DNA of 64,000 nucleotides, from positions 1,854 to 65,853 of the forward strand of contig JBAZUT010000001.1 of NCBI GenBank assembly GCA_041661265.1. The letters run 5' to 3'. This document shows, one piece after another, positions 6,001 to 59,028 of the stretch. This DNA is from Minisyncoccota bacterium (GTDB lineage: Bacteria > Patescibacteriota > Minisyncoccia > JAHIHE01 > JAGLIN01). The notes beneath the pieces were generated by a model. It searched no databases, was not told the origin of the DNA, and saw only the letters and a list, made by a program, of their open reading frames with translations. Numbering within the stretch: the first letter of the stretch is position 1; each line of letters opens with the position of its first letter. The position numbers were made by a program, and so were the translations under genes.

Positions 6001-7238
6001 TTTCCGCCATATCCCAAAGATCCAGCTGAACCTCCTCCTCCTCCTCCTCCTCCGCCGCCCTTTGTGGTACTTGAAGAGCCTCTTAGTGCGCCGCCGCCGC
6101 CGCCGCCGCCAACACCGGCGAGTCCGCCTGCTCCTATATATAAAGTACCATAAACACCTCCCCCTCCTCCACCACCCTGTCCGGAATTTCCATCAGTAAG
6201 AGAAGTCCCCCCGCTTCCTCCCGTGCCGTTATACGACTCGCCGCCTCCCGCATTTACACCGCAATTTCCTCCGGCTCCTCCCGCAAAGCCTAAAGCATTG
6301 GCATTGATCCCATTGGCAGCATTTACTGTTACTGTTCCAGTCGATCTAAAAGCCAATACGCCCCCCTTGGTGCCATCCCAGGTCGAGGGGATGAGAGATG
6401 CGCCGGAATTGATCGTAACATCAGTATAATTCGGCACCCGCTGAACCATTATTTTTTGCGTGGTACTGTCGCCATAGGTATAGCTAAGCGCGGAATTTAA
6501 AGTGAGAGTGTTGGTATTTATCGCAGTTATCGTTTTAAATTCATAATTACCCGCATTGCCAGAATCCGCAGAAGTACCCTTAAGATTGATTATTATGATC
6601 TCATCATTAACAGCCAGGCCTGTTGGCGTTGCAGATAAAGTGACAGCAGTCGCTCCGGCGCTGATCGTACCAGTGGTGGAAAAATTAACTGCACTCAGAA
6701 CCGTGTTCAACGATGAAACGACCAATGCGCCATCCGCGCCAGTGCCGCCGCCATAATCATAGTCAAGCTTTACGCCGCTCAAAATTTGCACCTTGCCAGA
6801 CTCCGGAGTTCCTAAATTAAAATTCTCATCAGTCGAATCGGTGGAAAGAGCGGACTTTCCGTTAAATTGCGTATCCGCGGTTTCTTCCACGTTTTCGCTT
6901 ACGACAGAAAGCTTCAATACTTTATCTTCATTAGGCTGGCCCGAGTTGAGGACGATCGAATCGATGGAGTCCTTGCTCTCATAGGTAGCCCATCCTGTTT
7001 TGTTGGAAGCATGAGTCGGATAGCAGACCGAGCCGTCCCACGTTCCATTGACCGCAGTGCATTCTCCGGCATTGGCGGGAGGAGCTATGTCCCAGCCCGC
7101 CTGTATCCATGAATTCGTGGCCGCCCTTCCGCTTGGCTTGCCGGGCATAAAAAAATACAGCACGGAACTCGTGACTATCGTGCTTACCAGGATCATAATA
7201 AAAGCGGTCTTGCTTAGAAATCTGACTTTTCTTTCCAT
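1..7238 (-). CDS. giant secreted/cell-surface protein, 3'-truncated by window edge (>2400 aa): N-terminal signal anchor, two ~560-aa tandem units (beta-rich domain + ~300-aa Gly-rich tract + Cys-containing domain), then repeated FN3-like modules
   Basis: Start ATG at 7236-7238 (rc), protein begins MERKVRFLSKTAFIMILVSTIV. This minus frame stays open to position 1, and no listed minus-strand ORF lies in it. Repeated motifs ITWxTxE...YEYQV and PLNPPTDPYHTF occur twice. Plus-strand poly-Pro ORFs are antisense artifacts of GGN codons. Confidence 0.8.
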   Translation of the reverse strand, partial: MERKVRFLSKTAFIMILVSTIVTSSVLYFFMPGKPSGRAATNSWIQAGWDIAPPANAGECTAVNGTWDGSVCYPTHASNKTGWATYESKDSIDSIVLNSGQPNEDKVLKLSVVSENVEETADTQFNGKSALSTDSTDENFNLGTPESGKVQILSGVKLDYDYGGGTGADGALVVSSLNTVLSAVNFSTTGTISAGATAVTLSATPTGLAVNDEIIIINLKGTSADSGNAGNYEFKTITAINTNTLTLNSALSYTYGDSTTQKIMVQRVPNYTDVTINSGASLIPSTWDGTKGGVLAFRSTGTVTVNAANGINANALGFAGGAGGNCGVNAGGGESYNGTGGSGGTSLTDGNSGQGGGGGGGVYGTLYIGAGGLAGVGGGGGGGALRGSSSTTKGGGGGGGGGGSAGSLGYGGNNGVDGGVLNGGGGGNSATYALGGGGGGGGNDGLTADGTGSSNLYRKAIFGGGGAAGGGARQNSTTCAGGGINGGGGGKGGGIIAIFARQITIPTGFSISANGTNGTNGTINSQQYSGGGGGGAGGSIIILTPNLSNSGSITSNGGSGGTITSGYAGGAGGGGRTYAKYASISGTAPSPNYYAASLLYNSSGTFTSRIFDMGVNQNFGKIAWTDNSSTVGGGSSVTMEVRSCANSNCSDGSFASVTNGGSLYNLNNKRYIQYRATLNSKTDLSATPTLSEVKIYYESTWNNVTVNANDIKLNYDYGSGDGADGALVVSSLNTVLSAVNFSTTGTINSGATTVTLSSTPTGLAVNDEIMIINLKGTSSDYSNTGNYEFRTITAINTNTLTLDSALSYTFGDSTTQKTMVQRVPNYTDVTISSGASLISTAWNGTKGGVLAFRATGTVTVGAANGINANGLGFSGAAAASAASGSAGGESYNGTGGSGGLCASTGNSLNGGGGGGGSVWSGTRVGGDGTLGNGGGGGGVATSGSNSSKGGGGGGGGNGSPGSGGAGFSTGSVGSNSNGGTGGSSGGNIVGGGGGGGGNDGRTASGAGSSTLNTRAYFGGGGGAGGAGAGGCAWAASSGGAGGKGGGVVVIYSNNLVISAGSSINSNGNNGGNAAVSSLDKGGGGGAGAGGSLIITAQNITDSGSIGANGGVGGAGGGTGSYSGGNGGEGRTYAKYGSFSGTIPTPNYYSTSIGYYSSGTFTSQIIDTGQKDLSWGLAEWSAATAIPSNTGMTVKVRSCDDSACSGETAFSGIAQSIAMTAGASSSALSALSSMVAGHRYFQYEVTMTSSDGVSTPTFSDLKVYYTHYPDTGVSPQTLVSSPYDTGSPASMLNTFSWNAQSGNLGEKPAGTNLKFRIRTAASKAGLTTASWCGPGDATNCDGGGGTQTYYETTSSGETINSTQSAGANDQWMQYKAWLESTDGSQTPVLSDASVLYVRNTPPCVGVTDDVTGDCVKNTITASQNSDASPSNIGKIVVGSYQISDFEESGLSDSPGDKDGGTVNIQYFYDAGVTTTAGVLASGNVSVSDPNSVLKTSGYIMIEDEVIYYDSNSGGVLTVTTGRGKWPEVGYTTLAVAHETVPTTVWVYALSATVKGDVTGVSYTENPIVTSGLTLDPASDLNSRIYLSNVKVRIALNDANGGGQVGTADSSNFAVDTVIPVYATPPFKINANASGYKLTDISLTESSTKYVRFANASNIDGSTCATDLASDPSATGWEAISATRVWTLSFDATNIATVCFQAKDNFNNENPTIKFVTIPANPKGMNKSDITVVPNSDYSLVVWWEIVSGATKYNVWRSTDGADYGLSPFVTINSGSTNYCYDEGDGNCADSATPGTLNSTTDYYYRVTAEDADGISIYSSVVSARPDGSSIGETPIGDTTPPRLISPLPVDSNNSNTSARITWYTDERSYSIVKYRKAGTSPFFIAGSVDKDDVNFVQEISSVNFSHTVDITGLAEGTQYEYQVLSADAAGLLMKSPNNPPTDPYYTFSTTSTSPSVTSGPTVVPGRDTATIYWQTNEVSDSMVNYIESTENDFTVDPAGGFSTALQTEKVTEHYVIINTNLSSGKFYNYQVIFSDNAATPNTATSPSAAPFLQFGTSTDPDSTKPVLISGPAPDGVSSGSTNSATITWNTNERSYSLVKYRIGAAEFSIAGSVNKDDAAFVTEVTPGSDYLHTVALSSLTSDSAYEYQVLSADGAGNLMEHPLNPPTDPYHTFTTNAQVPDIQEPSITLGPTVTPGRTNATVYWRTDEASTSQVKYVESTLDDFTVDPATGFSTATQTEKVTEHYVIIDANLASGRFYNYQVVSADAAATPNTKTYPNVSPYLQFETAGDQTDTTDPTIAYGIKLNQALDNSSTSDISLTSTDLMGSSGTIQIGDEHISYTSKNNTADTISGIARGSSPASHSLNDDVVEITDNTASLVFSGTDSSGSVLLSVAYEASDTLPLSFINKESTNP
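3430..6790 (-). repeat. intragenic tandem duplication (~1680-bp period, two units) inside the giant surface-protein gene, with stretches of near-identical nucleotide sequence
   Basis: For example 4720-5080 vs 6400-6760 share long identical runs (cagccaggcctgttggcgttg; gtggaaaaattaac.gcactcagaaccgtgttca.cgatgaaacgaccaatgcgccatccgcgcca). The two protein units align over ~560 aa. Confidence 0.7.
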
Positions 7239-7695
7239 CTTTTTATATTGACAGAAAGAATTATTACAGAATATCACCGATTCTTTTCCAAGCTTGGAAA
7301 AGATGAGAAAATTTTCTGCGCTATCGCCAAAAAGAAGGCAGATAAATCTTACAACCAACCTTGCAGCCTCCAGAGAGTATAGCTTCAGAGAGTCAAAAAA
7401 CATCAGAACTTTGTTCCCTTCTGTTTTCGACTGCTCTATTTCCTTCCTGATCCTGTCTGTGAGCAATATTATCTTTTCATACAAAGCAAGAAGCCTCATT
7501 TTTTTGTTTTGTTATATGCACCTCAGGAATAACAATTAGCTCTATTTATTAACTACAATATATCAGCAAGAAGATGCCTTCTGTTTTTTTTATTTGGGTA
7601 ACTCATAATAGAATTATACAATAAATTGCAAAATATAACAAATAGGCGTGCTAGTCCACCTCATATTGCATCAAGTAACCAGGTGCAAAGACATA

Positions 7696-8181
7696 TCATG
7701 CAAGCGACTCATCTATTTTTTTGGCCCAATCCATGGCCTTTTTCGCATTTTCATCCTTGTTTTTCAGAACATCGACAAAATCCGCCTCACCGATAAATTC
7801 ATTCCCTTTCAGTTCTTTTTTCATATCTTCCAGCGCTCTTTTCATCCCTCCGCTATGAGAGCAGAACGGTGCTATTTTCTTTCCGGAAAGTTTTGCTTTC
7901 GAAAAAAAAGTTCCGATGGGAGGAGAGAACGTGAAAGACCAGACAGGAGTGCCGATAATGATCGCATCATAATCGCCGGGATCCACGGAGAAAGGAAAAA
8001 GTTCCGGCTTTTCCTTCATGAACACCTGCCTTCCTCCCCAAAAATATTTCATAAATCCATTTGCGGAGATCTCCTTTTTCGGTTTCAGTTCCATGACATC
8101 TGCGCCAAGCGCTTTTGCAACAGCTTCCGCGATGAATTTGGTGTTACCCTCAAGCGAATAATAGACTACCAGTTTTTTCAT
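7696..8181 (-). CDS. flavodoxin-family protein
   Basis: MKKLVVYYSLEGNTKFIAEAVAKALG...AIIIGTPVWSF flavodoxin-like fold signature. The overlapping plus ORF 7648-8499 is low-complexity antisense. Confidence 0.65.
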   Translation of the reverse strand: MKKLVVYYSLEGNTKFIAEAVAKALGADVMELKPKKEISANGFMKYFWGGRQVFMKEKPELFPFSVDPGDYDAIIIGTPVWSFTFSPPIGTFFSKAKLSGKKIAPFCSHSGGMKRALEDMKKELKGNEFIGEADFVDVLKNKDENAKKAMDWAKKIDESLA

Positions 8182-8301
8182 ATTTTTTCATTATGGATTA
8201 TTAAAGCCACCGCGCGACGGCTGATCGCTGCCTGCATTTATTATAACACAAAACGCATCAAAATTGATGCGTCAAATCCAAAGTCCCAAGAAACACGATC
8301 C

Positions 8302-8526
8302 CTAGAACAACTTATCAAAATCTCTCGAATATTTTCCCATTTTTTCGATCATTATATCCACGATCCCGCTCTTGTAGATCTTGTCCTTATATGCCACAGT
8401 CAATGCCAGAACCGCAAGAAGAATAAAAACCATAACTATAAGCAGGTCCCTTTTCTTGTTCAAGTTTTTTCTTATCAGCATTGGCATGTCTCTATTTGAA
8501 AAATAAAGAATTGATGTGCTTGGCAA
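8302..8526 (-). CDS. small membrane protein (hypothetical), between TetR and flavodoxin genes
   Basis: 74 aa with one predicted TM helix (LLIVMVFILLAVLALTVAY), co-directional and overlapping the TetR stop. Confidence 0.3.
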   Translation of the reverse strand: MPSTSILYFSNRDMPMLIRKNLNKKRDLLIVMVFILLAVLALTVAYKDKIYKSGIVDIMIEKMGKYSRDFDKLF

Positions 8527-9079
8527 TATCTTTCGATTTCAGGTTCTTTCCACCGTCCAAAATCTCTCCAAGAACGAACGTGTTGAGCATTCCAATAAGA
8601 AGATGAGTCGCCATGTTGCTCGAGATGGAATCTTTTTTTCTGAGAACGAGAACGTCCTTGACTATGGGCTCGAATTGGCCCGCTATCTCATCCTTTTTTC
8701 TGGAAATAAAATCCACGATATTCTCATCTTCCTTGGCATATTTCTCATTCGTAAGCTTTGCAAGGTCTTTTTCCTCAAGGCAAAAATCCACATAGGAAGT
8801 TATCGCCTTGCAAAATTTTTTCTGGACCGAGAAATCCCCTTCGCTTATCTTTTTTATCATGCCGGAAAATTCGCTGAAGGCTCCGTCGATCACTTCCAAA
8901 TAAAGCTTCTCCTTGCTTGGAAAATGATAATAAAGCGCGGCCTTGGTCATCTCGAGAGACTTTGCGATATCCGACATCGAAACCCCGAGATAGCCGAACT
9001 TCGAAAACAGCTTTTCCGCCACATCGACTATGAGGTTTTTCGTCGGCGACGACTCTAGTTTTTCCGAATTAGGATCCAT
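8492..9079 (-). CDS. TetR/AcrR-family transcriptional regulator
   Basis: N-terminal HTH KNLIVDVAEKLFSKFGYLGVSMSDIAKSLEMTKAALYYHFPSKEKLY. Confidence 0.8.
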   Translation of the reverse strand: MDPNSEKLESSPTKNLIVDVAEKLFSKFGYLGVSMSDIAKSLEMTKAALYYHFPSKEKLYLEVIDGAFSEFSGMIKKISEGDFSVQKKFCKAITSYVDFCLEEKDLAKLTNEKYAKEDENIVDFISRKKDEIAGQFEPIVKDVLVLRKKDSISSNMATHLLIGMLNTFVLGEILDGGKNLKSKDIAKHINSLFFK

Positions 9080-28999: not shown

Positions 29000-31156
29000 T
29001 TATTCAAACAAAACCTTACGAAGTCTTATCAATTCTTCTTTTGTCAAGTCACCCAGATTCTTGACTTCCAATTTGACTCCTTCAGCAAATTCTTTTTGCC
29101 TTAACTCCGACGTTGTTTTCTCTATAGTATTTTTGAATTCCGCCGGAGACTCATATGCTTTTTTGGCTAATTCTCTTGCCTCTTTTTTCCCTACATATCT
29201 ATATCCTATCTTTAGAGTACCTTGTACTACTGGTGCCGAAAATGCAATAAACTCAAGATACTCCAAATCAATATAATATACCGTTTGGTTCAATACATTA
29301 TCTGGAATATTTCCTTTTATTAAAACGGAACTTAAGTTTACTGAATTCTCATCTTTAACACTATACTCATAACTAAGGCTATAGTTATATTGAGGATAGG
29401 ATAGCCTGCTAAGAAGATACATAGGTTTACCGTCATATAAAATTGTTTTATTGAAAGTATAAACTTCGGTCTCAATACCTTTATTTAGTATGTATTTATC
29501 CTTAATACTCTCGTACTGGACTATAGCTGCTTCCCAGCTATCCGAAGTTACATTCCTTTTCAATTTTATATCCTTGTTTTCAAGGATGTAATTCAAGCAA
29601 GACGAAACCTTCCAAGTCTCTGGCTGTGAATCAACGCCCGAAAGAGTACAGGCATTTCCTTTTATTACCAATGTCATTTCCTCATTCAAACTGTACATTC
29701 TCGAATTAGGTACTGACAATATAGGTTTTGATTCTTCAATTTTCTCCAGCTTTACATCGTCGATATAATATATATCTCCTGCCGCTGCTTGGGACGCAAG
29801 CCAGAACATTAAGCGTCCGTCATTTACCGCACCGGTAAAACCGGTTGTGGTAAATTCAGTCGTAAATGTCTGCCAGCCAGTGCCAAGATTAACATAATAA
29901 TCCGGCATATAAGGAGTATATGGCGATGCGTGCTTGATCAGCCTAACCTTTATATTTCGACCTACATTCGAGTAAGCCGCAAAGGTCAACCGATATCGCG
30001 TATTCGATTCCAATACTACTCCAGCTTGATACAACTGGATATTTGAACTGTTGCCGGTAATTGCAAGCTTTGCAACATTTCCCGTAACGTTGGAAGGCTC
30101 AATACTGAAAGTTCCTGCTTTTTTTGCATAAAATATCCAGGGCAATGTTCCTGATTCAAACCCGCTGTCGCCAATAATATTTACTGGGGTTGGTTCCGGG
30201 GTTAGTTCTGGCGTGGGTTCCGGAGTCGGTTCCGGAGTCGGTTCCGGCGTGGGTTCTGGAGTTGGTTTTTCGAGCTCAAAAGTTATCCTCCTATCCGCAT
30301 CGGAATAAAAGGAATAGGAATCACTTGGCGTGATATTCTGTAGTTTATTTGCCCATGCCCATTCCGGATTATCCATAGCAGGATCGTAGAATATCCATGC
30401 GCTATTGGACCAATTATAATGCCAGACTATTACTCCTGTAAGATTTTTAAAAATCTTTGTGCTGGTTACACCTGATTCTTTCGGTGCTTGCCAAACATTT
30501 CCATCTGGCACTCCGGTAGCAAGGTTCAATGTTACAGACCATGGCTGGACCGGAGTAATTACCGGTTCAGGAGTTACTTCGGGGGTTGGTGCCGGAGTTG
30601 AAACTGCCGTAGGAGCTACGGTTGGCTCCGGAGTTGCTACGGGCTTTTCTTCTAAAGTGACGAATACATCAGAACTACTGAAATCAACTCTTTTTGTTTG
30701 AGTTCTATATTCCGAACTTTCAAAAACAAGTAATTTACCAGTATCTCCTTGGCAAACCTCAACCTTAAACGGAGTAGTGCCTATCCAGCCTACATTAAAC
30801 TCAGTTATATCAATTCCTGACGGACTGGATGAAATTACCAGATATTTGCACTGCGAATACGCAATCGGTGTATCTGAAATAATTATATCCGCAAAGGAGT
30901 TTGTAACTCTTTTGACTGTTATATAAATATGCCCGTGAGCCGTATTTATTGCCCCTTCCTGGTAAAATACATCTTCTCCTGAAATGGTTAATGTAACCAA
31001 ACACCTTTCTCCGCATCCGAAATCTTTTACCACAACATCATATCCCGGATACTGATCTCCTTTGTGCATTTCCACTGCACCAACTGTCGATGGTGCCATC
31101 AGAAGCACCATTGCGGCAAATATTATTGCCCTTACTATGTCTCCATTTCTATTCAT
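29000..31156 (-). CDS. large secreted protein with (PTPE)n linkers (hypothetical surface protein)
   Basis: N-terminal signal peptide. PTPEPTPEPTPEPTPEPTPELTPEPTP linker encoded by 12-nt tandem repeats at ~30180-30265. Confidence 0.7.
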   Translation of the reverse strand: MNRNGDIVRAIIFAAMVLLMAPSTVGAVEMHKGDQYPGYDVVVKDFGCGERCLVTLTISGEDVFYQEGAINTAHGHIYITVKRVTNSFADIIISDTPIAYSQCKYLVISSSPSGIDITEFNVGWIGTTPFKVEVCQGDTGKLLVFESSEYRTQTKRVDFSSSDVFVTLEEKPVATPEPTVAPTAVSTPAPTPEVTPEPVITPVQPWSVTLNLATGVPDGNVWQAPKESGVTSTKIFKNLTGVIVWHYNWSNSAWIFYDPAMDNPEWAWANKLQNITPSDSYSFYSDADRRITFELEKPTPEPTPEPTPEPTPEPTPELTPEPTPVNIIGDSGFESGTLPWIFYAKKAGTFSIEPSNVTGNVAKLAITGNSSNIQLYQAGVVLESNTRYRLTFAAYSNVGRNIKVRLIKHASPYTPYMPDYYVNLGTGWQTFTTEFTTTGFTGAVNDGRLMFWLASQAAAGDIYYIDDVKLEKIEESKPILSVPNSRMYSLNEEMTLVIKGNACTLSGVDSQPETWKVSSCLNYILENKDIKLKRNVTSDSWEAAIVQYESIKDKYILNKGIETEVYTFNKTILYDGKPMYLLSRLSYPQYNYSLSYEYSVKDENSVNLSSVLIKGNIPDNVLNQTVYYIDLEYLEFIAFSAPVVQGTLKIGYRYVGKKEARELAKKAYESPAEFKNTIEKTTSELRQKEFAEGVKLEVKNLGDLTKEELIRLRKVLFE

Positions 31157-33563: not shown

Positions 33564-34099
33564 GGAGGAATATGTTTCTCACGGACATCTTCATGAAGAT
33601 GGTCATCTTCTTCGGATGTAAAACGGGATTATATCACCTGAGAGCAAAGTGGACCAAGGAAGGGCTGGTTTGCGAAGATTGCGGATATTTCGAAGATAAA
33701 GCTGCATATCAAGCAAGCCTGCACTCCGGTGCGGGATAACAAAAATACACGAAAATCGTGTAATTTTTTTAGGTGAAAAAAGCACCTTACACTTTTTTTC
33801 CCGAACAAATCCTTTTCGTCTGACTTTCACAGACTCATCAGTAAGCTAAGCTTATAAGGAAAAATGGCCTCAAGATAAAATAAAAGAAGATAAAGTATTT
33901 TCATAACAGTAAGAATTATTGTATTTATTAATCTTAAAAACAGCATCAATTTTAAGGTACGTACAAATATTATGTCGCCTGCCATCATCAGTTTAGAGAG
34001 GCCATTCTCTAAAGACACAAATTGATAACCCAAATGTGTTTCGGCTATGAAACTAGGATGTATATATTCTAACAAGAAAATAAAAAGATGCAACCATGA

Positions 34100-34495
34100 C
34101 TATATCCTTTGAATAATTCGATCTATAATTTTCTGGCCGTTTTTTAATTGATGCTCCCAAATTCGAAAAATTTTCCAGCCAATTTTTTTATAATATTTCG
34201 TTACTTCCCTATCTCTTTCAACATTCCGTGCTAACTTTAATTGCCAAAATCTTTTTCTGGTATTTGGCATACTCCCATGCCTTTTGCATCCATGCCAGAA
34301 ACAAGAATCTACAAAAATGACAGCCTTGTATTTTGATAAAACCAAGTCGGGCTTCCCGAAATATTTTGATGAATTTTTACAGTAACGAAATCCCACTTTC
34401 CAGAGTTTTTTTCTAAATTCAATCTCCAGCTTGCTGTCCTTGCTTCGGACTTTAGACATTATCTCGCTTCGCTTCTTTTTTGAGTAAATATCCAT
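34100..34495 (-). CDS. vsr: very-short-patch repair endonuclease Vsr
   Basis: FRKKLWKVGFRY, GKPDLVL, FVDSCFWHGC, ...IFRIWEHQ family signature. Confidence 0.85.
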   Translation of the reverse strand: MDIYSKKKRSEIMSKVRSKDSKLEIEFRKKLWKVGFRYCKNSSKYFGKPDLVLSKYKAVIFVDSCFWHGCKRHGSMPNTRKRFWQLKLARNVERDREVTKYYKKIGWKIFRIWEHQLKNGQKIIDRIIQRI

Positions 34496-34500
34496 ATACT

Positions 34501-36207
34501 TTAGATTGTTTCCGCATTATCCAATCGATTGAATAAATGTGATAAAAGACTTAATGCGTCTAGACAATCTTGTTCCGTATATAAGCCAGACTGTCTCAAA
34601 TCTTCAGCAGTTTCGTGCGCCTTTGGATTTCTAAAAGCCATCCACATCGCACGAGCCAATAGACCATGTCCTTTGGAAATGTTTTCCAATGTAAGTGGCT
34701 TAAAATCTGTACCATCGGGCCGTTTATACTTTTTTGTTACAGATAATATTGGTAGAACAGGAGGCAGAGGCGGGTTTTGTGGTTTCGGCTGATCCGGTGA
34801 AAAAGCTTCTTTAATCAATCTAAGATCAACATTACTGGATGCGGTTTTAGCTTTAATCTGATTAACATATTCAGTCACACCCTCCAGTACGGCACCATAA
34901 TAATCGCTATTTTTATAATAATTAAAGACAATTTTTTTTAAAACTGGATGCAAATTGCGCCAGTGAAAGTACGGATATGGTTTAATTATATTTTGAAGAC
35001 CCTTTAAACTGCTTACAAGCTTTTCTTCTGTCATCTCAGAATCTTTCAATAAAGCACCGATGATAGGATCAAGATCTTCTCTAATATTTTCAGGTATATG
35101 ATTTCGCCACTCACCAATACTCATGCCAGTTTTATTTTCTGCCTCTTTTGATCTTATTTCTGCTCTTCTTTTACGCCAATCTTGTTCCAGCCAATTAATA
35201 ACTTTTCTTAAATAATCTCTTAATTTTAACATTTCCGGATGACCCCAATTTAAAGATTTTCGATCTGTAGCTATAACGTCTTCATCAAGATCATCAATAA
35301 AATCTACTTCCAGCCAACCAGTCAAATACGAAAAGAAATGACTTGACATGCTTTCAGAAAAATACTCCGGTAAATTTACCAATTTTTTCCTAGAAAATAA
35401 AGTAACTCCACGCATATTAGTTTTTGGTGAAATCGGCGTTTCTGTCGCAATAAGATATCCAGTAACTTTATTTTTTTCTGAATAATCTGATTCGAGTTTA
35501 ATTTCTTTTGGAACGTCCCACTCAACTTCTTTTTTTAAATCCGCATACTTCTTCTCGTTTTCAACAAAAAAAGGGTTTTCTTCATTATACTGGATAGAAA
35601 CTTTAAAAGTATTATCTACAATAAAGATTTTTGACAATGCAACAGCAAGAGCTGACGAATCAAATTCGGTTTGACGATGAAGTCCACGAAGGATAATTGT
35701 TGTACCATTTTTAGCATCGCAAGGTTCATCAATCTTTATAAGTTGCGGATGATATTCAGCGGTTTTAGATTCTTTTATGTCTTGCCATCGAAGAATAAAA
35801 ACGTTCATTTTTAAATTCTTCTTCGTAATCACTTCAATCTCCTCAGCAATCCCAAAAAATGATAACTTCCCTATGCCCTTTTTCCCTATTACTTTTCTCC
35901 CTCCTGTAATACTTTCTACTTCTTCCTCATCTCGTCTATTACGACCGATACGAAGAAATTTACTATTGATTTCTTCGAGATTCATTCCAATACCATTATC
36001 TTTGACAGCAATTTCCCGTTTTCCGTATTTATCATATAGAAAAACAGTCACGTCTGAGGCATTAGCATCATAAGAATTTGCTACCAACTCAGCGAGAACC
36101 GGTGGTAACGTTGAGTACATTCGAACGCCAAGATGTTCAATCGTCGCCGGATCAAATGTCATTTTTAAAATATCCTTTTCTTGATCATTTTGATTCATAA
36201 TTTTCAA
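34501..36207 (-). CDS. GHKL/MORC-like ATPase (HATPase_c_3-type) with C-terminal HEPN-like Rx4H motif; uncharacterised defense-associated protein
   Basis: Bergerat-fold motifs ELVANSYDA (N-box), DNGIGM (G1), GKKGIGKLS (G2). C-terminal FRNPKAHE (Rx4H) at 34612-34635. Overlaps the dcm stop by 23 nt, 5 nt upstream of vsr. Confidence 0.75.
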   Translation of the reverse strand: MKIMNQNDQEKDILKMTFDPATIEHLGVRMYSTLPPVLAELVANSYDANASDVTVFLYDKYGKREIAVKDNGIGMNLEEINSKFLRIGRNRRDEEEVESITGGRKVIGKKGIGKLSFFGIAEEIEVITKKNLKMNVFILRWQDIKESKTAEYHPQLIKIDEPCDAKNGTTIILRGLHRQTEFDSSALAVALSKIFIVDNTFKVSIQYNEENPFFVENEKKYADLKKEVEWDVPKEIKLESDYSEKNKVTGYLIATETPISPKTNMRGVTLFSRKKLVNLPEYFSESMSSHFFSYLTGWLEVDFIDDLDEDVIATDRKSLNWGHPEMLKLRDYLRKVINWLEQDWRKRRAEIRSKEAENKTGMSIGEWRNHIPENIREDLDPIIGALLKDSEMTEEKLVSSLKGLQNIIKPYPYFHWRNLHPVLKKIVFNYYKNSDYYGAVLEGVTEYVNQIKAKTASSNVDLRLIKEAFSPDQPKPQNPPLPPVLPILSVTKKYKRPDGTDFKPLTLENISKGHGLLARAMWMAFRNPKAHETAEDLRQSGLYTEQDCLDALSLLSHLFNRLDNAETI

Positions 36208-37243
36208 TTATAATTTTACCAAGCTGTCTCGCAAATTCGGGAGGAACAGCGTTCCCTATCATTCGCGCAATATCTGACATATTCTTCGCATAAAATACAT
36301 AGTCTTTGGGAAATGTTTGCAGCGTCGCACCTTCTCGAATAGAAATAGCCCTATTTTCTTCAGGATGAGCAAACCTACCATTAGAAATGCTTAAAAATTT
36401 AGTCGTAATAGTCGGGGCAGGCTTATCCCAGCTCATACGACCATAATTATCAATAAAACCATTACCTTTGTATTTTTTCCTTTTTAAATTCTTATCATGG
36501 GCCCAATCAAGCCAAGAACCTCCATTTTTTGCAGTCTTCTTAAGACGAAGTAAATTCTTTGATGTAAGGCCGGCAACCGAATGATTAAATTCCGTATCAT
36601 CCCTAAATCCAGCCTTCACTTTTTGAAATCCATTTTTCTCCCCTAAAACATCAGCAACGGTACGTTTTTTATTTATTGAATATTCTGGAAATATTTCTTT
36701 GTCAATCACTCTGCTGGCAACCAAGGAAAATCTTTTGCGAGCCTGAGGAATGCCATAATCACTCATATTCACAATCTCAAAATGAACCTTGTATCCCCTG
36801 TCTTTTAAATTGGAAACAAAATTATTCAAGCCGCTCTGATCTTTTTTCCGTAATATTCCCGGGACATTTTCAACCAATACATAACCAGGGTTAAAGTAGT
36901 CAACGAATCTCTTAAATTCAATAAGAAGATTTTTTGATTTTTGCGATTTTGTTTTATCATGCTGAATAATAGACCAATACTGACATGGGCTGCAACCAAT
37001 AAACACAATCTCATCATCGTTTTTTTTCAATCCAAGTCTTTTCGCAAGATCAATTTCTTTTAAAGCAAATACATCAGCCGTTATGAATTGCGAGTTGGGA
37101 TTATTCTTTTCATATGTCTCTTTGCATGAAGAATCATTATCTATGCCAGCAATCACGTCAATCCCTGCCTGAATTAGACCATTCGTCATTCCACCTCCCG
37201 AGCAAAAAAAGTCAACTGCTCTTATTTTTGTTTTTTTTTGCAT
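36185..37243 (-). CDS. dcm: DNA (cytosine-5)-methyltransferase
   Basis: Motif I DFFCSGGG, IV GCSPCQ, VI ENVPG, VIII QARKR, X GNAVPP. Confidence 0.9.
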   Translation of the reverse strand: MQKKTKIRAVDFFCSGGGMTNGLIQAGIDVIAGIDNDSSCKETYEKNNPNSQFITADVFALKEIDLAKRLGLKKNDDEIVFIGCSPCQYWSIIQHDKTKSQKSKNLLIEFKRFVDYFNPGYVLVENVPGILRKKDQSGLNNFVSNLKDRGYKVHFEIVNMSDYGIPQARKRFSLVASRVIDKEIFPEYSINKKRTVADVLGEKNGFQKVKAGFRDDTEFNHSVAGLTSKNLLRLKKTAKNGGSWLDWAHDKNLKRKKYKGNGFIDNYGRMSWDKPAPTITTKFLSISNGRFAHPEENRAISIREGATLQTFPKDYVFYAKNMSDIARMIGNAVPPEFARQLGKIIIENYESK

Positions 37244-37246
37244 ATA

Positions 37247-38083
37247 TTAAAAGTTTATAAACCATTCTTTATTCACCTCTACAACTTCTTCCGTCTTGAG
37301 ATTAATTCCAATTTTGAGTTCTTTCATTTTTTCCACCAGTTCATCTCCTTCGATCAAATCAATAGGAGGCGCGCCATCTCTCGTCGCTTCTTGTTTGGCA
37401 TCCCGAGTAAATGTGCCAGTTGTAATAACCAGACCCTTGTCAGCTCGACCTACCATCGCACCTCTAAAATCTCGTATTTGTTGTGACGAGACACTTCCCG
37501 CATAACGTTTACATTGAAATATAATTCTAAAACTCAATAGGCCTCCAATTTTAATAATACCCCTCCCATCTATACCGCCATCACCCGAACGACCAGTAAC
37601 TTCTACTTGGACAAAACCTGATTCACGCAAAATTCTCTGACATAACCTCTCGAAAGCTTCCGGGCTCAGTTGCAAACATTGTTCAAGTAATTCTTCCTCC
37701 CAAAGTTTCGGCGCACCTTCCGGCTCAGTACCTTCTGCAACCTCCGCCTCAATTGAATCAGTTTCACGATCGATGGTTTTAACAAAATGATTCACAATAT
37801 TTTTGTCAACGCTATTCACCTCTCTTCCCTTGGTTGTAAGGGCCCATACTCCTCTTGATGAATTCTCCAATACACCAAAACGCTTCAAATAATTACGCGA
37901 CCAAGCAAGGCGATAACCAAGCTTGGTTCTGTTTCCCCGATGAATTTCATTAATTTCATCTTCGCTAAGTTTCAATAAATTAGCAACTTTTTCCTCAATT
38001 TCAGCAATAGAACCGGAGCCGCCAAGTTCATGCAAGGCTTTGATTACTGGATTAAATAAATTATCATAAGTTGGGATAGCCAT
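37247..38083 (-). CDS. mrr: Mrr-family restriction endonuclease (Mrr_N winged helix + Mrr_cat PD-(D/E)xK)
   Basis: N-terminal IPTYDNLFNPVIKALHELGG. Catalytic region GDGGIDGRGI...FQCKRYAGSVSSQQIRDFRGA...GLVITTGTFT. Confidence 0.8.
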   Translation of the reverse strand: MAIPTYDNLFNPVIKALHELGGSGSIAEIEEKVANLLKLSEDEINEIHRGNRTKLGYRLAWSRNYLKRFGVLENSSRGVWALTTKGREVNSVDKNIVNHFVKTIDRETDSIEAEVAEGTEPEGAPKLWEEELLEQCLQLSPEAFERLCQRILRESGFVQVEVTGRSGDGGIDGRGIIKIGGLLSFRIIFQCKRYAGSVSSQQIRDFRGAMVGRADKGLVITTGTFTRDAKQEATRDGAPPIDLIEGDELVEKMKELKIGINLKTEEVVEVNKEWFINF

Positions 38084-38283: not shown

Positions 38284-38715
38284 TCAAGCCTTCTCCGGCT
38301 TGCTCTTTATTCTATTCCTGCATTTCTTGCTTCCGCATTTGCATTTCATTTTCAAACCGACTATAGATTCTTCGGAAAAATTGATCGTGATCTCTTCGCC
38401 TTTTTTGATATCCCTGGAAGCGATATCACGGGCATTTTTCGCGAATGTGTTTGCATCGCAGGAATGATTTAGATATTTCCCAGGAGACGTCGGAATGATA
38501 TATTTTCCTTTGTAGTAATAGACATTTTTTCTGATCGGATCCGGAAGATCCGGAATGTCTTCTTTTTTCACTTGACTCTTCAAGTCCCACTCGATGACAA
38601 CTTCCCCTTTTTTGAAATCGCGCGCCGCAAACACGCCCTTGCCAAGTATCTTTGATCTCTTCACTATCCAATCTTTGTGCCTGGAAGGATCTTTTCCTAC
38701 TGATGTTTTTTTCAT
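38284..38715 (-). CDS. SET-domain protein (putative lysine methyltransferase) with post-SET Cys cluster
   Basis: GKGVFAARDFKKGEVVIEW, NHSCDAN, post-SET CKCGSKKCR. Confidence 0.8.
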   Translation of the reverse strand: MKKTSVGKDPSRHKDWIVKRSKILGKGVFAARDFKKGEVVIEWDLKSQVKKEDIPDLPDPIRKNVYYYKGKYIIPTSPGKYLNHSCDANTFAKNARDIASRDIKKGEEITINFSEESIVGLKMKCKCGSKKCRNRIKSKPEKA

Positions 38716-38908: not shown

Positions 38909-39712
38909 TCATTTCTTTGGCTTGTTCAGCTCCCCCACCTTCCCGATCACAAATCTTATAAACTCCACCACCTCTTTCTGCCGTTTCATCTCCTGACCAT
39001 AGCGCCAAGCCTCGGCTTCTTCGATCAGGTTTTTCCATTCGCCAAATTCATTCTTAATCCAAGCGGCGGATTTCGGCTTGGAAGCAAGTTTCCCAGTCAA
39101 GATCGTATAGAGGATCCGGCACAGGTGCAACACGAGATAGGACTGCTGGTGCGGATCGTTCAGATATGCCGTGTCCTTTATTTTCGGCTCCCATTCCTCG
39201 AACAAGTCTCGTATGCGAGCTTCGATTAAATCTTTGCTTTCAATCCGTTTCTTGATGAGCGTTTTGAACTCCGGACCGATAAGCGCAATTCCATCGTGAA
39301 CAAGAACATACTGATCAATGATCCATTCGTTTCCATATTTCGCCATGGGACAAAATTTTCCCGCTCCGAAATAGGGCCGTCCTTCTTTGGGCGGAAGAAT
39401 GTTTTCAAGCATGAAAAGTGAAATATATGAGCACTCGATCCTTTTGGCCCATCTTGGGAATTTTTTCTCCGCGTCAATGTGCAATTGTTTCACTTTTTGG
39501 ATCTTTTCGCCAGGCGCCGGATTTTTCAGAACGACCGCAAGATCGATGTCGCTCCGCTCTTTGTTGAAATCGCCATAGGATAGAGATCCGGTGAGATAGA
39601 TCCCGACCAGATCATCGGCAAAAATATTCTGAATCCCCTCTGTCAAAAAGCAGAGTACATTGTTGATGACCTTGTGCGGCGTCGCTTTTTTGATGTGTTC
39701 AAGATTTTCCAT
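38909..39712 (-). CDS. aminoglycoside nucleotidyltransferase-like protein (ANT(3'')/AadA fold: NTase domain + DUF4111-like C-terminus)
   Basis: GIYLTGSLSYGDFNKERSDIDLAVVL NTase motif (GS...D.D), length 267 aa as AadA. Confidence 0.7.
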   Translation of the reverse strand: MENLEHIKKATPHKVINNVLCFLTEGIQNIFADDLVGIYLTGSLSYGDFNKERSDIDLAVVLKNPAPGEKIQKVKQLHIDAEKKFPRWAKRIECSYISLFMLENILPPKEGRPYFGAGKFCPMAKYGNEWIIDQYVLVHDGIALIGPEFKTLIKKRIESKDLIEARIRDLFEEWEPKIKDTAYLNDPHQQSYLVLHLCRILYTILTGKLASKPKSAAWIKNEFGEWKNLIEEAEAWRYGQEMKRQKEVVEFIRFVIGKVGELNKPKK

Positions 39713-56710: not shown

Positions 56711-57088
56711 CTACCCCCCTTTCCCGAATTGGGCTGATTCCCAGCTATGCCCCAATTCAGCAAGTATTAGCCATACCCTAACTTCACCAAACAATGCATC
56801 CTTTTTTTGAAGATACTTGGCGATGTTCAAACATATTTGGTCTTGTCTTTCTACCCGATCCTTAAAAGAGTGAGCCGTTATTTCAATTTCTACATCACCG
56901 ATCATTCCCTCACCGCTAACATTAACGAGACGAATACTTACTTCTTCCGGTTTAAGCTTAATATCATTACAAGTTAATTCTTGAGCAATAAACTTTTTCA
57001 GATCATCTTTTAGTGAATTCGACATTAGCTGCCGACCAACGTCTTTTTGTTGACCTAAATCTTTATAAAAAATATTTACGGTTGGCAT
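56711..57088 (-). CDS. hypothetical protein (Pro2 after Met; tautomerase-like fold cannot be excluded)
   Basis: ORF only. Confidence 0.35.
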   Translation of the reverse strand: MPTVNIFYKDLGQQKDVGRQLMSNSLKDDLKKFIAQELTCNDIKLKPEEVSIRLVNVSGEGMIGDVEIEITAHSFKDRVERQDQICLNIAKYLQKKDALFGEVRVWLILAELGHSWESAQFGKGG

Positions 57089-57347
57089 AATAAATGATAT
57101 TTATGTTTATTTTAATTATTTTATAATTAATTCTTAAAACAAAAAACTTATCCCTTCTAAATTAACCACATTAAAACTCTTAGAGCGAATTTTATTATCT
57201 GAAAAATATATATCCAATTATACCCCCAACCAAACAGTTAACGGAATATTAGAAAAATAGAACAGAACATCAAACTCCTAATCTTTTAATTCAATCACCT
57301 CGAAATTTCCGCGGCGTCAGAAAAGGAATCCGGTACCTTTTAAATAT

Positions 57348-58454
57348 TTATATTCGTAGATCATTTATCCCCGCCAACTCTAATCCGCAAGCTGAAACTG
57401 CTCGTTTATAGCCATATAATTCATTTAAGGAACGATACCATTGATTTCTATATACAGCACGAGTAGCAACGGCGAGCATTTTCTTCTCTAAAGAATTGTC
57501 AAATAACTGTAAATATGGCAAAGCTTTTTCGATAAACTTAGAAGCGTAAATTTGCGATTCTTTAATAATTTCTCTTTCAACCATAATTTTGGCTATACTT
57601 TCAAGATCATTCTTTTGCGCTTTTTGATTACCAAAAGCTTTTTTGAACAACTCTTTTTCATTTTTACTTGCTTTTTCTAGAAATAAAATATTTATTATTG
57701 TATATCGACCATTTTTTATGTCTTCAAAATCTTTTATAATATCGCTTATATCATTGGTAACCATATAAGCTATACCGATATTTTCACCGAAATTTGATAA
57801 TGCATTAATTCTTTCATTACTGCCACCGGCGGCAATTCCACCAATTTTTAAAATATGCTCCCAATAATTATATGCATAAGTTCTTCTTTCGTAAACATCC
57901 ATAGAGGGTTCATTATTATGATTTTCAATAAAAAATCCTTCATAAATATCCTTTATAAAGCTAGATACAGTATTTAAAATATAATGTGTTTGTTGCTCAT
58001 TTAATTTTAATTTTTCTATTGATTCTCCAATTAAATCATAGGCTAAGCTAATAAGTATATGAGAGATTATAATTTTATCCTGTACATTTTGACGATTTTG
58101 ATAATATCCAGGATAATCAAAAATTTTGTCACAACAGTAATAAGAAAATTCTAACAAATCCATTGATGCTGCTATCGGTAAAAAATTTATTAAATCCTTA
58201 CCACCGCAAATCTCATATCCCAATCTTGCAATGTGAGATCTCATTTTTGGTTTACCAAGTCTTCCTATGGCTGCTTCGTATAGTTTTTTATAAATCTCGT
58301 CATTATTGCATATTCTGCCTTTCGACTTTTCAAAATAATTTAATATTATTGGATCTACGAGATTTGAAGTTTCCTCCATTATACGAAAATATTTATCAAG
58401 CAAAAGCATGATCTCTTTTCTTTCATCTTTTTTGGTTTTTTGACCTTGTTCCAT
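57348..58454 (-). CDS. polyprenyl-synthetase-superfamily-like protein with degenerate Asp-rich motifs
   Basis: GIAYMVTNDISDI resembles the second DDxxD motif. The first motif is replaced by CDKIFD. Confidence 0.4.
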   Translation of the reverse strand: MEQGQKTKKDERKEIMLLLDKYFRIMEETSNLVDPIILNYFEKSKGRICNNDEIYKKLYEAAIGRLGKPKMRSHIARLGYEICGGKDLINFLPIAASMDLLEFSYYCCDKIFDYPGYYQNRQNVQDKIIISHILISLAYDLIGESIEKLKLNEQQTHYILNTVSSFIKDIYEGFFIENHNNEPSMDVYERRTYAYNYWEHILKIGGIAAGGSNERINALSNFGENIGIAYMVTNDISDIIKDFEDIKNGRYTIINILFLEKASKNEKELFKKAFGNQKAQKNDLESIAKIMVEREIIKESQIYASKFIEKALPYLQLFDNSLEKKMLAVATRAVYRNQWYRSLNELYGYKRAVSACGLELAGINDLRI

Positions 58455-58563
58455 ACATTTATATAACTTGCGGATGTTTAATTAAATCTCTGATTGAAAC
58501 CGCCTATACTTTAACGATTTTAATTTACAACTATTCCATTGTATTATTAGGTAAATAAAACAG

Positions 58564-59028
58564 CTATTCTGTCCCCAACTGAATAGTCAAAGGAATATTT
58601 GAAAAATAAGAAAGCACATCGAACTTTGAATCTTTTAATTCGATCATCTCGAAATTTACACGATCAATAAGCTTAAAATGCTCGTCATCTTTCAAATACT
58701 TTTCCTTGAAAGAATTGTAATCCCTGAGAGTAAAATCGGCGTCTCCGCGCTCCAGACGTGCTGGATCTGGCTTGCGAACTTTGAGAAGCCAAAGAGGCCC
58801 GGCAAGAGTTTGAAGCGGTTTATAAAATTTATAAAGAGGTCCAGTCGAGTTATCCTCCACAACATCACCAAGCTCAGAGGCTTCCCTGTTCAGCGCTTCA
58901 TATTCAGCCCTACTCTGACAAAAAATCGCCGAGTAGTTTACTTTTGTTGATTCATCCAATATATGAATTTTATTTAATTCTATTGTTCTTGGAATAATGT
59001 ATTCCAAGATTCCAGAAACTGTATTCAT
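58564..59028 (-). CDS. hypothetical protein
   Basis: ORF only. Confidence 0.4.
   Translation of the reverse strand: MNTVSGILEYIIPRTIELNKIHILDESTKVNYSAIFCQSRAEYEALNREASELGDVVEDNSTGPLYKFYKPLQTLAGPLWLLKVRKPDPARLERGDADFTLRDYNSFKEKYLKDDEHFKLIDRVNFEMIELKDSKFDVLSYFSNIPLTIQLGTE

Follow-up and report, generated by a model that had tools for sequence, protein, structure and literature searches.

The closest described counterpart of the gene reported here belongs to the NmeAI system of Neisseria meningitidis, which comprises the methyltransferase M.NmeAI (C5mCGG), a protein designated "R" and Vsr (PMC2441816, PMC3787668, PMC4676702). In this system, R is a GHKL ATPase carrying a Hypoth_Ymh domain, and its name R.NmeAIP bears the suffix "P" of a putative enzyme. 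The GHKL-Ymh architecture has already been published twice, both times on computational grounds: as R.NmeAIP by Orlowski and Bujnicki in 2008, and as paraMORC-Ymh fusions by Anantharaman et al. in 2013. These fusions, located in restriction-modification (R-M) neighborhoods, were predicted to be RNases similar to PrrC and RloC (PMC3710099). A literature search for experiments on GHKL-HEPN, Ymh or TIGR02391 proteins yielded these two computational papers and no experimental study.

Other known systems share parts of this design. The BbrUII and HgiDII restriction enzymes (NCBIfam NF050001) are built on a homologous chassis of GHKL domain, middle domain and helix, and their genes likewise directly follow that of an m5C methyltransferase, in many cases with Vsr in the vicinity. 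An anti-phage function has been shown by experiment for VcSduA (paraMORC3, Shedu type I-D) from Vibrio cholerae, which unites an N-terminal GHKL ATPase and a C-terminal nuclease-type effector in one polypeptide and needs both its ATPase and its nuclease residues; an entwined dimeric clamp is predicted for it (PMC12137116). Its effector is however a DUF4263 PD-(D/E)xK DNase rather than a HEPN domain, and its gene stands alone, no methyltransferase partner being described in PMC12137116. The PrrC and RloC anticodon nucleases combine an NTPase with a C-terminal HEPN domain (Rx4-6H) within an R-M locus, an analogy taken from PMC3710099. Their NTPase is of the ABC type (Rad50/SbcC-like), whereas the protein studied here begins with a GHKL domain and matched no ABC or AAA family in Pfam or NCBIfam. 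Moreover, PrrC lies within a complete type Ic R-M system having its own DNase, whereas the only partner of the present gene is a Dcm methyltransferase. Finally, an architecture in common exists with sacsin, the human ARSACS protein, a giant eukaryotic chaperone-like protein without any link to DNA methylation. The HEPN domain of sacsin is not known to act as an RNase, and the resemblance in architecture probably reflects convergence or a very distant relationship.

The window, i.e. the whole stretch of 64,000 nucleotides that was analyzed, brings no new architecture; its value is to provide a clean and intact four-gene example of such a cassette (Table 1). The genes form a compact operon in the order Mrr-Dcm-GHKL/HEPN-Vsr. 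The Mrr gene stops 3 nt ahead of the Dcm start, and the Vsr gene begins 5 nt past the stop codon of the ATPase/HEPN gene. The probable start of the latter is the ATG at 36198, which yields 565 aa, as in the public protein, and overlaps the 3' end of the Dcm gene by 14 nt. This identical public protein is assigned to a Ca. Paceibacterota MAG; Rfam, tRNA and NCBIfam markers gave no diagnostic signal for the taxonomy of the window. The succession of an m5C methyltransferase, a GHKL + Hypoth_Ymh protein and Vsr is that of NmeAI, as is the domain architecture; at 37.5% identity, the alignment with the gonococcal homolog covers 97% of the query. The two systems differ by this identity of only about 37% and by the additional Mrr gene of the window. 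The GHKL/HEPN gene holds the R-position, or restriction-enzyme slot, of a Dcm/Vsr cassette. The first-pass annotation had treated the gene in isolation, and neither this context nor the homology with BbrUII/HgiDII appeared in it.

Table 1. Genes of the operon and domains of the GHKL/HEPN protein, with positions in the window.
Feature	Position	Strand	Basis or remark
Mrr-type (type IV, modification-dependent) restriction endonuclease	37247..38083	(-)	Pfam Mrr_N + Mrr_cat
C-5 cytosine DNA methyltransferase (Dcm-type)	36185..37243	(-)	Pfam DNA_methylase E 3.5e-58, TIGR00675
GHKL-ATPase/HEPN fusion gene	34501..36207	(-)	568 aa counted from TTG
GHKL (Bergerat-fold) ATP-binding domain, aa ~15-200	35608..36165	(-)	Pfam HATPase_c_3 E 9e-23
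Middle/transducer (S5-like) domain, aa ~201-322	35242..35607	(-)	Foldseek alignments, conservation, BbrUII/HgiDII homology
Helical linker, aa ~323-404	34996..35241	(-)	AF2 secondary structure
Ymh-type HEPN domain, aa ~405-565	34513..34995	(-)	PF09509, TIGR02391
HEPN catalytic signature R526-N-P-K-A-H531	34615..34632	(-)	Conservation
Vsr (very-short-patch-repair endonuclease)	34100..34495	(-)	Pfam Vsr E 6e-28; TIGR00632 123.9 bits (cut-off 97.85 bits)

The N-terminal GHKL ATPase recognized in the first-pass annotation is borne out by this analysis. The fold is predicted with confidence (AF2 pLDDT 82), and the motifs follow one another in canonical order: E40/N44/D47 in motif I, D70-G72-G74 in motif II, G108-K114 in motif III and T169 in motif IV. 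These residues are invariant or almost so in 76 sequences, a conservation consistent with an active enzyme able to bind and hydrolyze ATP. The following region of about 330 aa, in which no domain had been recognized at first, resolves into an S5/transducer domain of the Hsp90/MORC kind, a linker composed of a 37-residue helix (324-360) and short helices in the AF2 model, and the first helices of the Ymh domain. The middle domain carries the invariant basic residues R273, K275 and R316. The succession of a Bergerat fold and an S5/transducer-type middle domain is a trait of the MutL/Hsp90/MORC/paraMORC subgroup. Foldseek aligned the protein over some 380-400 columns (E ~1e-10) with the two-domain ATPase modules of Hsp90, TRAP1, MORC2/3 and SMCHD1, while the best PDB sequence match of the GHKL domain was MutL. 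The initial description of the protein as MORC-like claims too much specificity: MORC2/3 and Hsp90-family structures match about equally well in Foldseek, and membership of the MORC family proper, which cannot be distinguished here, was rejected. A MORC-specific sequence motif, reportedly identified by Iyer et al. in 2008, divides MORCs from paraMORCs. In this terminology, the ATPase of the window is a paraMORC-type GHKL, and Ymh fusions have been assigned to the paraMORCs (PMC3710099).

The identification of the C-terminus as a HEPN domain with an Rx4H motif is likewise confirmed. PF09509 scored 48.6 bits against a cut-off of 25, its whole profile (1-119) being covered by a match that begins at aa 417, and TIGR02391 scored 53.4 bits against a cut-off of 39.45. 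Structure prediction gave an all-alpha HEPN fold for the C-terminus, just as it gave an ATPase fold for the N-terminus; a different outcome at either end would have spoken against the initial reading. The R526-NPKA-H531 signature is located at the C-terminal end of a long core helix (504-530 in the AF2 model), and a conserved basic and proline-rich insert occupies aa ~471-505. The Rx4H motif is invariant in 60/60 sequences; across phyla, its arginine is kept in 69/71 and its histidine in 70/71 (~97-99%). A search of PDB sequences with a profile of the HEPN-domain alignment produced no match. In some proteins, sacsin and MtlR among them, the HEPN domain is a non-catalytic module for binding or dimerization. 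HEPN RNases proper work without metal ions and by way of the 2'-OH, as is well established for the superfamily (PMC3710099). If the domain of the window protein is catalytic, it would be expected to act in this metal-independent manner, from a composite active site formed by a HEPN dimer.

Taken together with the gene context, these domains point to the effector subunit, in the R-position, of an NmeAI-type module of m5C methyltransferase and GHKL-ATPase/HEPN protein, in which a methylation-linked and ATP-driven clamp would control a HEPN RNase. A probability of roughly 0.5 is given to this reading. The proposal initially made for the gene, namely an ATP-gated sensor coupled to a HEPN RNase of the abortive-infection type, agrees with the published prediction and seems plausible.

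The comparison with BbrUII/HgiDII shows where this protein departs from known restriction enzymes. Homology extends over aa 1-~390 of the window protein with 29-40% identity, and the stretch common to the HgiDII-type relatives ends near aa 390, BLASTP alignments stopping at aa 386-393. A phage protein annotated ParaMORC3 matches over a similar portion of the query (residues 6-384). Against NF050001 the window protein scored 229.5 bits, restricted to profile positions 2-400 of 659; the whole-protein cut-off is 550 bits, and a true member, found in Halobaculum (L009), reaches 800.8 bits. The C-terminal ~250 aa of BbrUII/HgiDII (WLxDP...R.D...(E/D)xK, PD-(D/E)xK-like) are missing from the window protein, which carries HEPN there instead. 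Membership of this family was rejected because the score lies under the cut-off and the C-terminal domain is absent. The two C-termini are unrelated (hhalign probability 0.1%). Those of BbrUII/HgiDII type display an invariant D...(E/D)xK and weak matches to SduA_C, HSDR_N_2 and Tox-REase-9; on this sequence evidence they are probably PD-(D/E)xK nucleases. A profile of their alignment gave no match among PDB sequences. In the Pfam search, SduA_C matched only these HgiDII-type relatives, and not the window protein.

The same comparison bears on the possibility that the gene encodes a conventional type II restriction endonuclease, cutting unmethylated DNA at the site of the methyltransferase through the HEPN domain or through an unrecognized active site. 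The R position in an M-R-V operon and the homology of the N-terminal 390 aa with BbrUII/HgiDII would fit such an enzyme, as would the PADLOC REase_II models, which match at E 4e-33, and the type II label used in REBASE-derived resources. The Neisseria homolog has moreover been treated as the "restriction gene" of NmeAI (PMC3787668), and the gonococcal copy of R is a pseudogene whose decay resembles that of R-M systems. R.NmeAIP nevertheless remains putative, and the window protein is far below the NF050001 cut-off and entirely devoid of the D...(E/D)xK domain. Neither a PD-(D/E)xK, HNH, GIY-YIG or PLD family nor one with a MutL-type metal site was detected in it with Pfam, NCBIfam or PADLOC. 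In addition, HEPN chemistry requires a 2'-OH, which is absent from DNA. A DNA-cleaving type II enzyme is judged improbable.

The distribution of the cassette was surveyed in 80 related genomic loci. In 68/72, the gene immediately upstream, on the same strand, is Dcm. Of the other four, L050 is reordered as M-V-R and L057 has the order R-M-V, L045 contains a short Dcm-like ORF next to a transposase, and in L053 a truncated R comes after an N6/N4 methylase. Vsr is present in the vicinity of the pair in 26/67 loci (39%). L001-L003 and L028 are the only loci in which Mrr accompanies the cassette, apart from a single distant match in L035. Dcm is a near-obligate partner, Vsr a facultative accessory and Mrr a lineage-specific addition. 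No conserved third partner was found downstream of the gene in the Vsr-negative loci, and neither a further conserved nuclease gene nor any other conserved partner was found across the related loci. In one case (L004), the cassette is set between housekeeping genes. The cassette is frequent among Patescibacteria and DPANN archaea, and is also present in Neisseria, Burkholderia and Pseudolactococcus. The ATPase and HEPN active sites are both under purifying selection in 76 proteins from Patescibacteria, DPANN, Actinomycetota, Proteobacteria and others.

These counts weigh upon another explanation inspired by the neighboring genes. Vsr repairs the T:G mismatches arising from 5mC deamination, and the GHKL and S5 domains might form a MutL-like accessory stimulating the adjacent Vsr at such mismatches, with HEPN as a dimerization module only. 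In the window the gene is indeed sandwiched between Dcm and Vsr, MutL is the top PDB sequence match of its GHKL domain, and a functional interaction of the two repair proteins is documented, E. coli MutL stimulating Vsr according to work cited in PMC2292703. Such a role is very unlikely, given that Dcm is nearly universal in the family whereas Vsr is detected near a minority of its members, that the near-complete retention of the HEPN arginine and histidine is unexpected for a mere dimerization module, and that in related proteins the chassis bears what is probably a nuclease domain.

The partner methyltransferases were also clustered by target-recognition domain (TRD), and the identity of each region of R was correlated with TRD identity. 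The R tree largely follows the M class, and one TRD class occurs with both effector types, HEPN and HgiDII-type. The residual correlations between R regions and TRD are small (0.26 for GHKL, 0.17 for S5 and -0.2 for the HEPN C-terminus) and confounded by co-inheritance; this weak covariation identified no element of R reading the DNA sequence.

In the preferred reading of an NmeAI-type effector, the protein would be a dimeric ATP-driven clamp, like MutL, Hsp90 and MORC and as predicted for VcSduA. The clamp would engage DNA devoid of the mark of the partner methyltransferase, and this engagement would switch on the C-terminal HEPN dimer. Since the ribose 2'-OH takes part in canonical HEPN catalysis, the substrate would most likely be RNA (tRNA, rRNA or mRNA). 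Instead of restricting DNA, the system would then arrest translation or abort the infection, or else bring about post-segregational killing, with cognate methylation serving as the antidote. For the window protein, RNase activity, ATP dependence, DNA binding, methylation sensing and dimerization are all predicted properties. A more specific version is advanced only tentatively: an R-M module with an RNA-cleaving output, whose GHKL clamp would read the missing m5C mark on incoming or unprotected DNA and activate the HEPN RNase in an ATP-dependent manner to shut down translation, so that DNA methylation would provide the self/non-self signal. DNase (as in BbrUII/HgiDII and VcSduA) and RNase would be interchangeable effectors on one chassis. 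In such a module, the RNase might be directed locally against the nascent transcripts of unmethylated DNA, or it might act throughout the cell as abortive infection.

The same effector and the same outcome are expected if the protein functions as a guard of the PrrC/RloC type, as in Anantharaman et al. The HEPN RNase would be kept latent through binding to the methyltransferase or to some other host factor, regardless of DNA methylation, until a phage anti-restriction or anti-methylation factor frees it, leading to tRNA cutting and cell death. The association of an NTPase and a C-terminal HEPN domain within an R-M locus parallels PrrC/RloC (PMC3710099), and the tight overlap with the methyltransferase gene would favor stoichiometric co-production. 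PrrC, however, guards a complete type I R-M enzyme, whereas the core module here (Dcm and GHKL-HEPN) has no separate DNA-cleaving subunit, Vsr being present in 39% of the loci and Mrr rarely. The ATPase also belongs to the GHKL rather than the ABC type, and its homologs form the chassis of enzymes acting directly on DNA. A guard function is therefore considered unlikely, if less so than DNA cleavage by a type II enzyme.

Should the HEPN domain prove to be an active RNase under the control of DNA methylation state, this widespread cassette would blur the distinction between restriction-modification and abortive infection, and the GHKL/paraMORC clamp would be a general sensor platform on which nuclease effectors can be swapped. 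Current annotations as "ATP-binding protein" or type II restriction enzyme both miss the HEPN domain, and the term "restriction enzyme" may be wrong. In symbionts with small genomes and few defense systems, the cassette may be a major immune module.

Concerning the expression of the operon, a scan for sigma-70 promoters did not exceed chance, with 17 candidates against 16.2 expected from shuffled sequences. One 10/12 match, by consensus only, lies upstream of the Mrr gene at 38186-38158(-).

The open reading frame and the motifs on which the first-pass annotation relied were all recovered at the same positions. Read from its TTG codon, the gene encodes 568 aa, and the ATG at 36198 (codon 4) yields the 565-aa protein reported by public gene callers, which is 100% identical and which NCBI lists under a 'Candidatus Paceibacterota' MAG. 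The N-terminal motifs ELVANSYDA (aa 40-48), DNGIGM (70-75) and GKKGIGKLS (108-116) are accompanied by a Pfam HATPase_c_3 match (aa 35-153, E 9e-23), and the C-terminal FRNPKAHE by matches to the full Hypoth_Ymh profile (PF09509, aa 417-562, E 9e-13) and to NCBIfam TIGR02391 (53.4 bits for a cut-off of 39.45). Built on 60 homologues, the AlphaFold2 model reaches a mean pLDDT of 82. Foldseek aligned about 380-400 columns of its N-terminal part (E ~1e-10) with PDB structures of the two-domain ATPase modules of Hsp90/TRAP1/GRP94, MORC2, MORC3 and SMCHD1. Since this alignment spans both domains of these modules, the central region, initially described as devoid of any recognised domain, in fact starts with a middle domain of the S5/transducer type (aa ~201-322), after which come a helix of 37 residues and a helical linker. 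The later-listed matches of the C-terminal domain include MtlR, AbiA, Csm6, RnlA, LsoA, HepS and Cas13b. The assignment of this protein as a GHKL ATPase joined to a HEPN domain is well supported, and neither outcome that the first-pass annotation had named as refuting it (a non-HEPN fold of the C-terminus with R526 and H531 not adjacent, or an N-terminus lacking a confident ATPase fold) was observed.

Conservation was examined among 60 close homologues and, independently, among 76 proteins of species-representative genomes. The GHKL residues E40, N44, D47, D70, G72, G74, G108, K109, G111, G113 and K114 and the middle-domain residues R273, K275 and R316 are invariant in both sets. The HEPN arginine is found in 69 of 71 members (lysine in the remaining two) and the histidine in 70 of 71. 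As judged from these sequences, purifying selection acts on both catalytic centres.

The gene is the third of four closely packed genes, in the order Mrr, Dcm, GHKL-HEPN, Vsr. Mrr ends 3 nt before Dcm, the 3' end of Dcm overlaps the GHKL-HEPN gene by 14 nt (counted from the ATG), and 5 nt separate the stop codon of the latter from Vsr. The GC content is 33-36% over the cassette (34000-37000) vs ~43% in its flanks, which fits a mobile island. A second dip (57000-59000, 29-33% vs ~43-50% elsewhere) is present in the window, and these two low-GC stretches suggest horizontal acquisition.

Features of the window and of the related loci (positions of the latter refer to their own records)
Locus	Feature	Position	Strand	Remarks
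Window	718-aa ORF	29000-31156	-	Long PTPEPTPEP-type repeats, signal-peptide-like N-terminus, no Pfam family on record
Window	Vsr	34100-34495	-
Window	GHKL-HEPN gene	34501-36207	-	568 aa from TTG
Window	FRNPKAHE motif	34612-34635	-	aa 525-532
Window	C-5 cytosine methyltransferase (Dcm)	36185-37243	-
Window	Mrr	37247-38083	-	Mrr_N + Mrr_cat, type IV modification-dependent endonuclease
Window	Promoter-like match	38186-38158		10/12
Window	Terminator-like hairpin	38302-38285
Window	SET-domain protein	38284-38715	-	143 aa
Window	AadA-like nucleotidyltransferase	38909-39712	-	NTP_transf_2 + AadA_C
L045	Exception to upstream Dcm	2596-7650		Short (249-aa) Dcm-like ORF beside DDE transposase, then Vsr and intact GHKL-HEPN gene
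L050	Exception to upstream Dcm			Order Dcm, Vsr, GHKL-HEPN
L053	Exception to upstream Dcm	3061-7386		GHKL-HEPN without first ~90 aa (motif I), behind 945-aa N6_N4 methyltransferase
L057	Exception to upstream Dcm			Order GHKL-HEPN, Dcm, Vsr
L005/L020	Second m5C methyltransferase and NmeDI_C-domain protein	4292-6447		Actinomycetota MAG chromosome
L006	Decayed GHKL-HEPN locus	4092-7057		Neisseria gonorrhoeae chromosome
L007	SIR2_2 protein	7096-8778		Burkholderia sp. RPE67 plasmid p1

A word-indexed search returned 1426 relatives, the best 120 of which are all ~545-585 aa long with both Pfam domains; the named ones among these 120 are mostly from Patescibacteria. The scan of species-representative genomes gave 80 loci, found in Patescibacteria, DPANN archaea (Woesearchaeota, Nanoarchaeota), a Methanoregula MAG, Actinomycetota, Nitrospirales, Gammaproteobacteria, Bdellovibrionales, Planctomycetota, Gemmatimonadota and the cultured Pseudolactococcus laudensis. 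Further copies occur on a Burkholderia plasmid and, decayed, in Neisseria gonorrhoeae. Among 73 HEPN-type loci, 72 have room for an upstream gene, and in 68 of these Dcm lies directly upstream on the same strand. Two of the exceptions, L045 and L053, are possible intermediates of decay or re-pairing. Vsr is detectable within the flanks of 26 of 67 loci (39%), downstream of the GHKL-HEPN gene or upstream of Dcm, and Mrr in two; no other conserved partner was found in these flanks. The obligate unit is therefore the methyltransferase plus the GHKL-HEPN protein. With Vsr in such a minority of loci and a conserved HEPN site, a MutL-like role as helper of Vsr is highly improbable. In a complete Moraniibacteria genome, a Dcm, GHKL-HEPN, Vsr cassette is flanked by yceG and dnaJ, and its vicinity contains no further nuclease gene.

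The N-terminal part is shared with the BbrUII/HgiDII type II restriction enzymes, and it is their C-terminus that is replaced here by HEPN. Residues 15-388 align with positions 2-400 of the 659 in the NCBIfam model at 229.5 bits, a score far under the 550-bit cut-off that places the protein outside this family. Identity with the window's protein is 29% for a Halobaculum relative above the cut-off (800.8 bits) and 40% for one from Acinetobacter, and both alignments stop near aa 386-393. The C-termini of HgiDII-type relatives share an invariant WLxDP...E...R.D...(E/D)xK...A..Y pattern, match weakly the PD-(D/E)xK families SduA_C (E 8e-5), HSDR_N_2 and Tox-REase-9, and gave a profile-profile probability of 0.1% with the HEPN domain. 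Because the alignments end there and the C-termini are unrelated, the same ATPase chassis bears a HEPN domain in some proteins and a likely PD-(D/E)xK DNase in others. Methyltransferases with the same class of target-recognition domain pair with both versions. Canonical HEPN catalysis employs the ribose 2'-OH. A conventional DNA-cutting type II enzyme, as the common chassis might evoke, is consequently improbable, its nuclease domain being missing and the HEPN chemistry speaking against it.

Several elements of this picture are on record. Orlowski & Bujnicki (2008) described R.HgiDII as an N-terminal GHKL domain with an unassigned C-terminus, and R.NmeAIP as GHKL plus a C-terminal Hypoth_Ymh domain (PMC2441816); the three genes of the NmeAI system serve modification (C5mCGG), 'restriction' and short-patch repair (PMC3787668, PMC4676702). 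Iyer et al. (2008) defined the paraMORC families of GHKL proteins, which occur in R-M operons together with Dcm and Vsr (PMC2292703). VcSduA (paraMORC3), a GHKL protein with a DUF4263 nuclease, provides phage defence that requires both ATPase and nuclease residues (PMC12137116). Anantharaman et al. (2013) classed Ymh as HEPN, noted Ymh-paraMORC ATPase fusions in R-M neighbourhoods and proposed a functional analogy with PrrC/RloC (PMC3710099). A PrrC-like guard, in which protein contact keeps HEPN latent, is rather unlikely, since the module has no separate DNase to guard. A literature search for experiments on any GHKL-Ymh protein found none. The gene in the window is an intact member of this computationally described family; the initial proposal of an ATPase sensor driving a HEPN RNase was reasonable but not new, and had missed the R-M context.

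The architecture, the intact catalytic residues and the near-obligate, overlapping pairing with a methyltransferase are established for this module, as are the chassis common to DNA-acting enzymes and the swapped effector domain. The favoured reading, with a probability of about 0.5, is that the GHKL-HEPN protein would be a dimeric clamp driven by ATP, that it would engage DNA on which the methyl mark of its partner methyltransferase is missing, and that the engaged clamp would switch on the HEPN dimer. The substrate would most likely be RNA, given the need for a 2'-OH; growth arrest or abortive infection would follow, with methylation as the antidote. No DNA-sequence reading element was located in the GHKL-HEPN protein, and its covariation with the methyltransferase is weak and confounded by co-inheritance. 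The question raised is whether an R-M-like module can have an RNase as its output, and the four-gene cassette allows a direct test.

The window's operon combines a methyl-dependent (Mrr) and a methyl-protected system; outside the window's own lineage (L001-L003), Mrr stands beside the cassette only in locus L028 (83% identity). A little further upstream of the cassette are the SET-domain and AadA-like genes, separated from Mrr by the hairpin and the promoter-like match. The 718-aa repeat ORF may be a surface protein; the window also encodes one tRNA-Ser, ThiM, a nitrilase-like protein and a prenyl synthase, markers that neither bear out nor contradict the Paceibacterota label. At L005/L020, the tabulated genes lie directly upstream of the Dcm/GHKL-HEPN pair, forming two tandem cytosine-methylase systems, and a 132-aa gene without a Vsr Pfam match follows. 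On the Burkholderia plasmid, the 560-aa SIR2_2 protein (weak TIR_2 match) takes the place of Vsr after GHKL-HEPN, and the annotation there wrongly gives all three genes (Dcm, GHKL-HEPN, SIR2) the name 'putative membrane protein'. The N. gonorrhoeae homologue contains two in-frame stops next to an intact Vsr, and the upstream region, where the methyltransferase is expected, is broken into short ORFs; this chromosome-sized 2.17-Mb record is filed as a plasmid in PLSDB.
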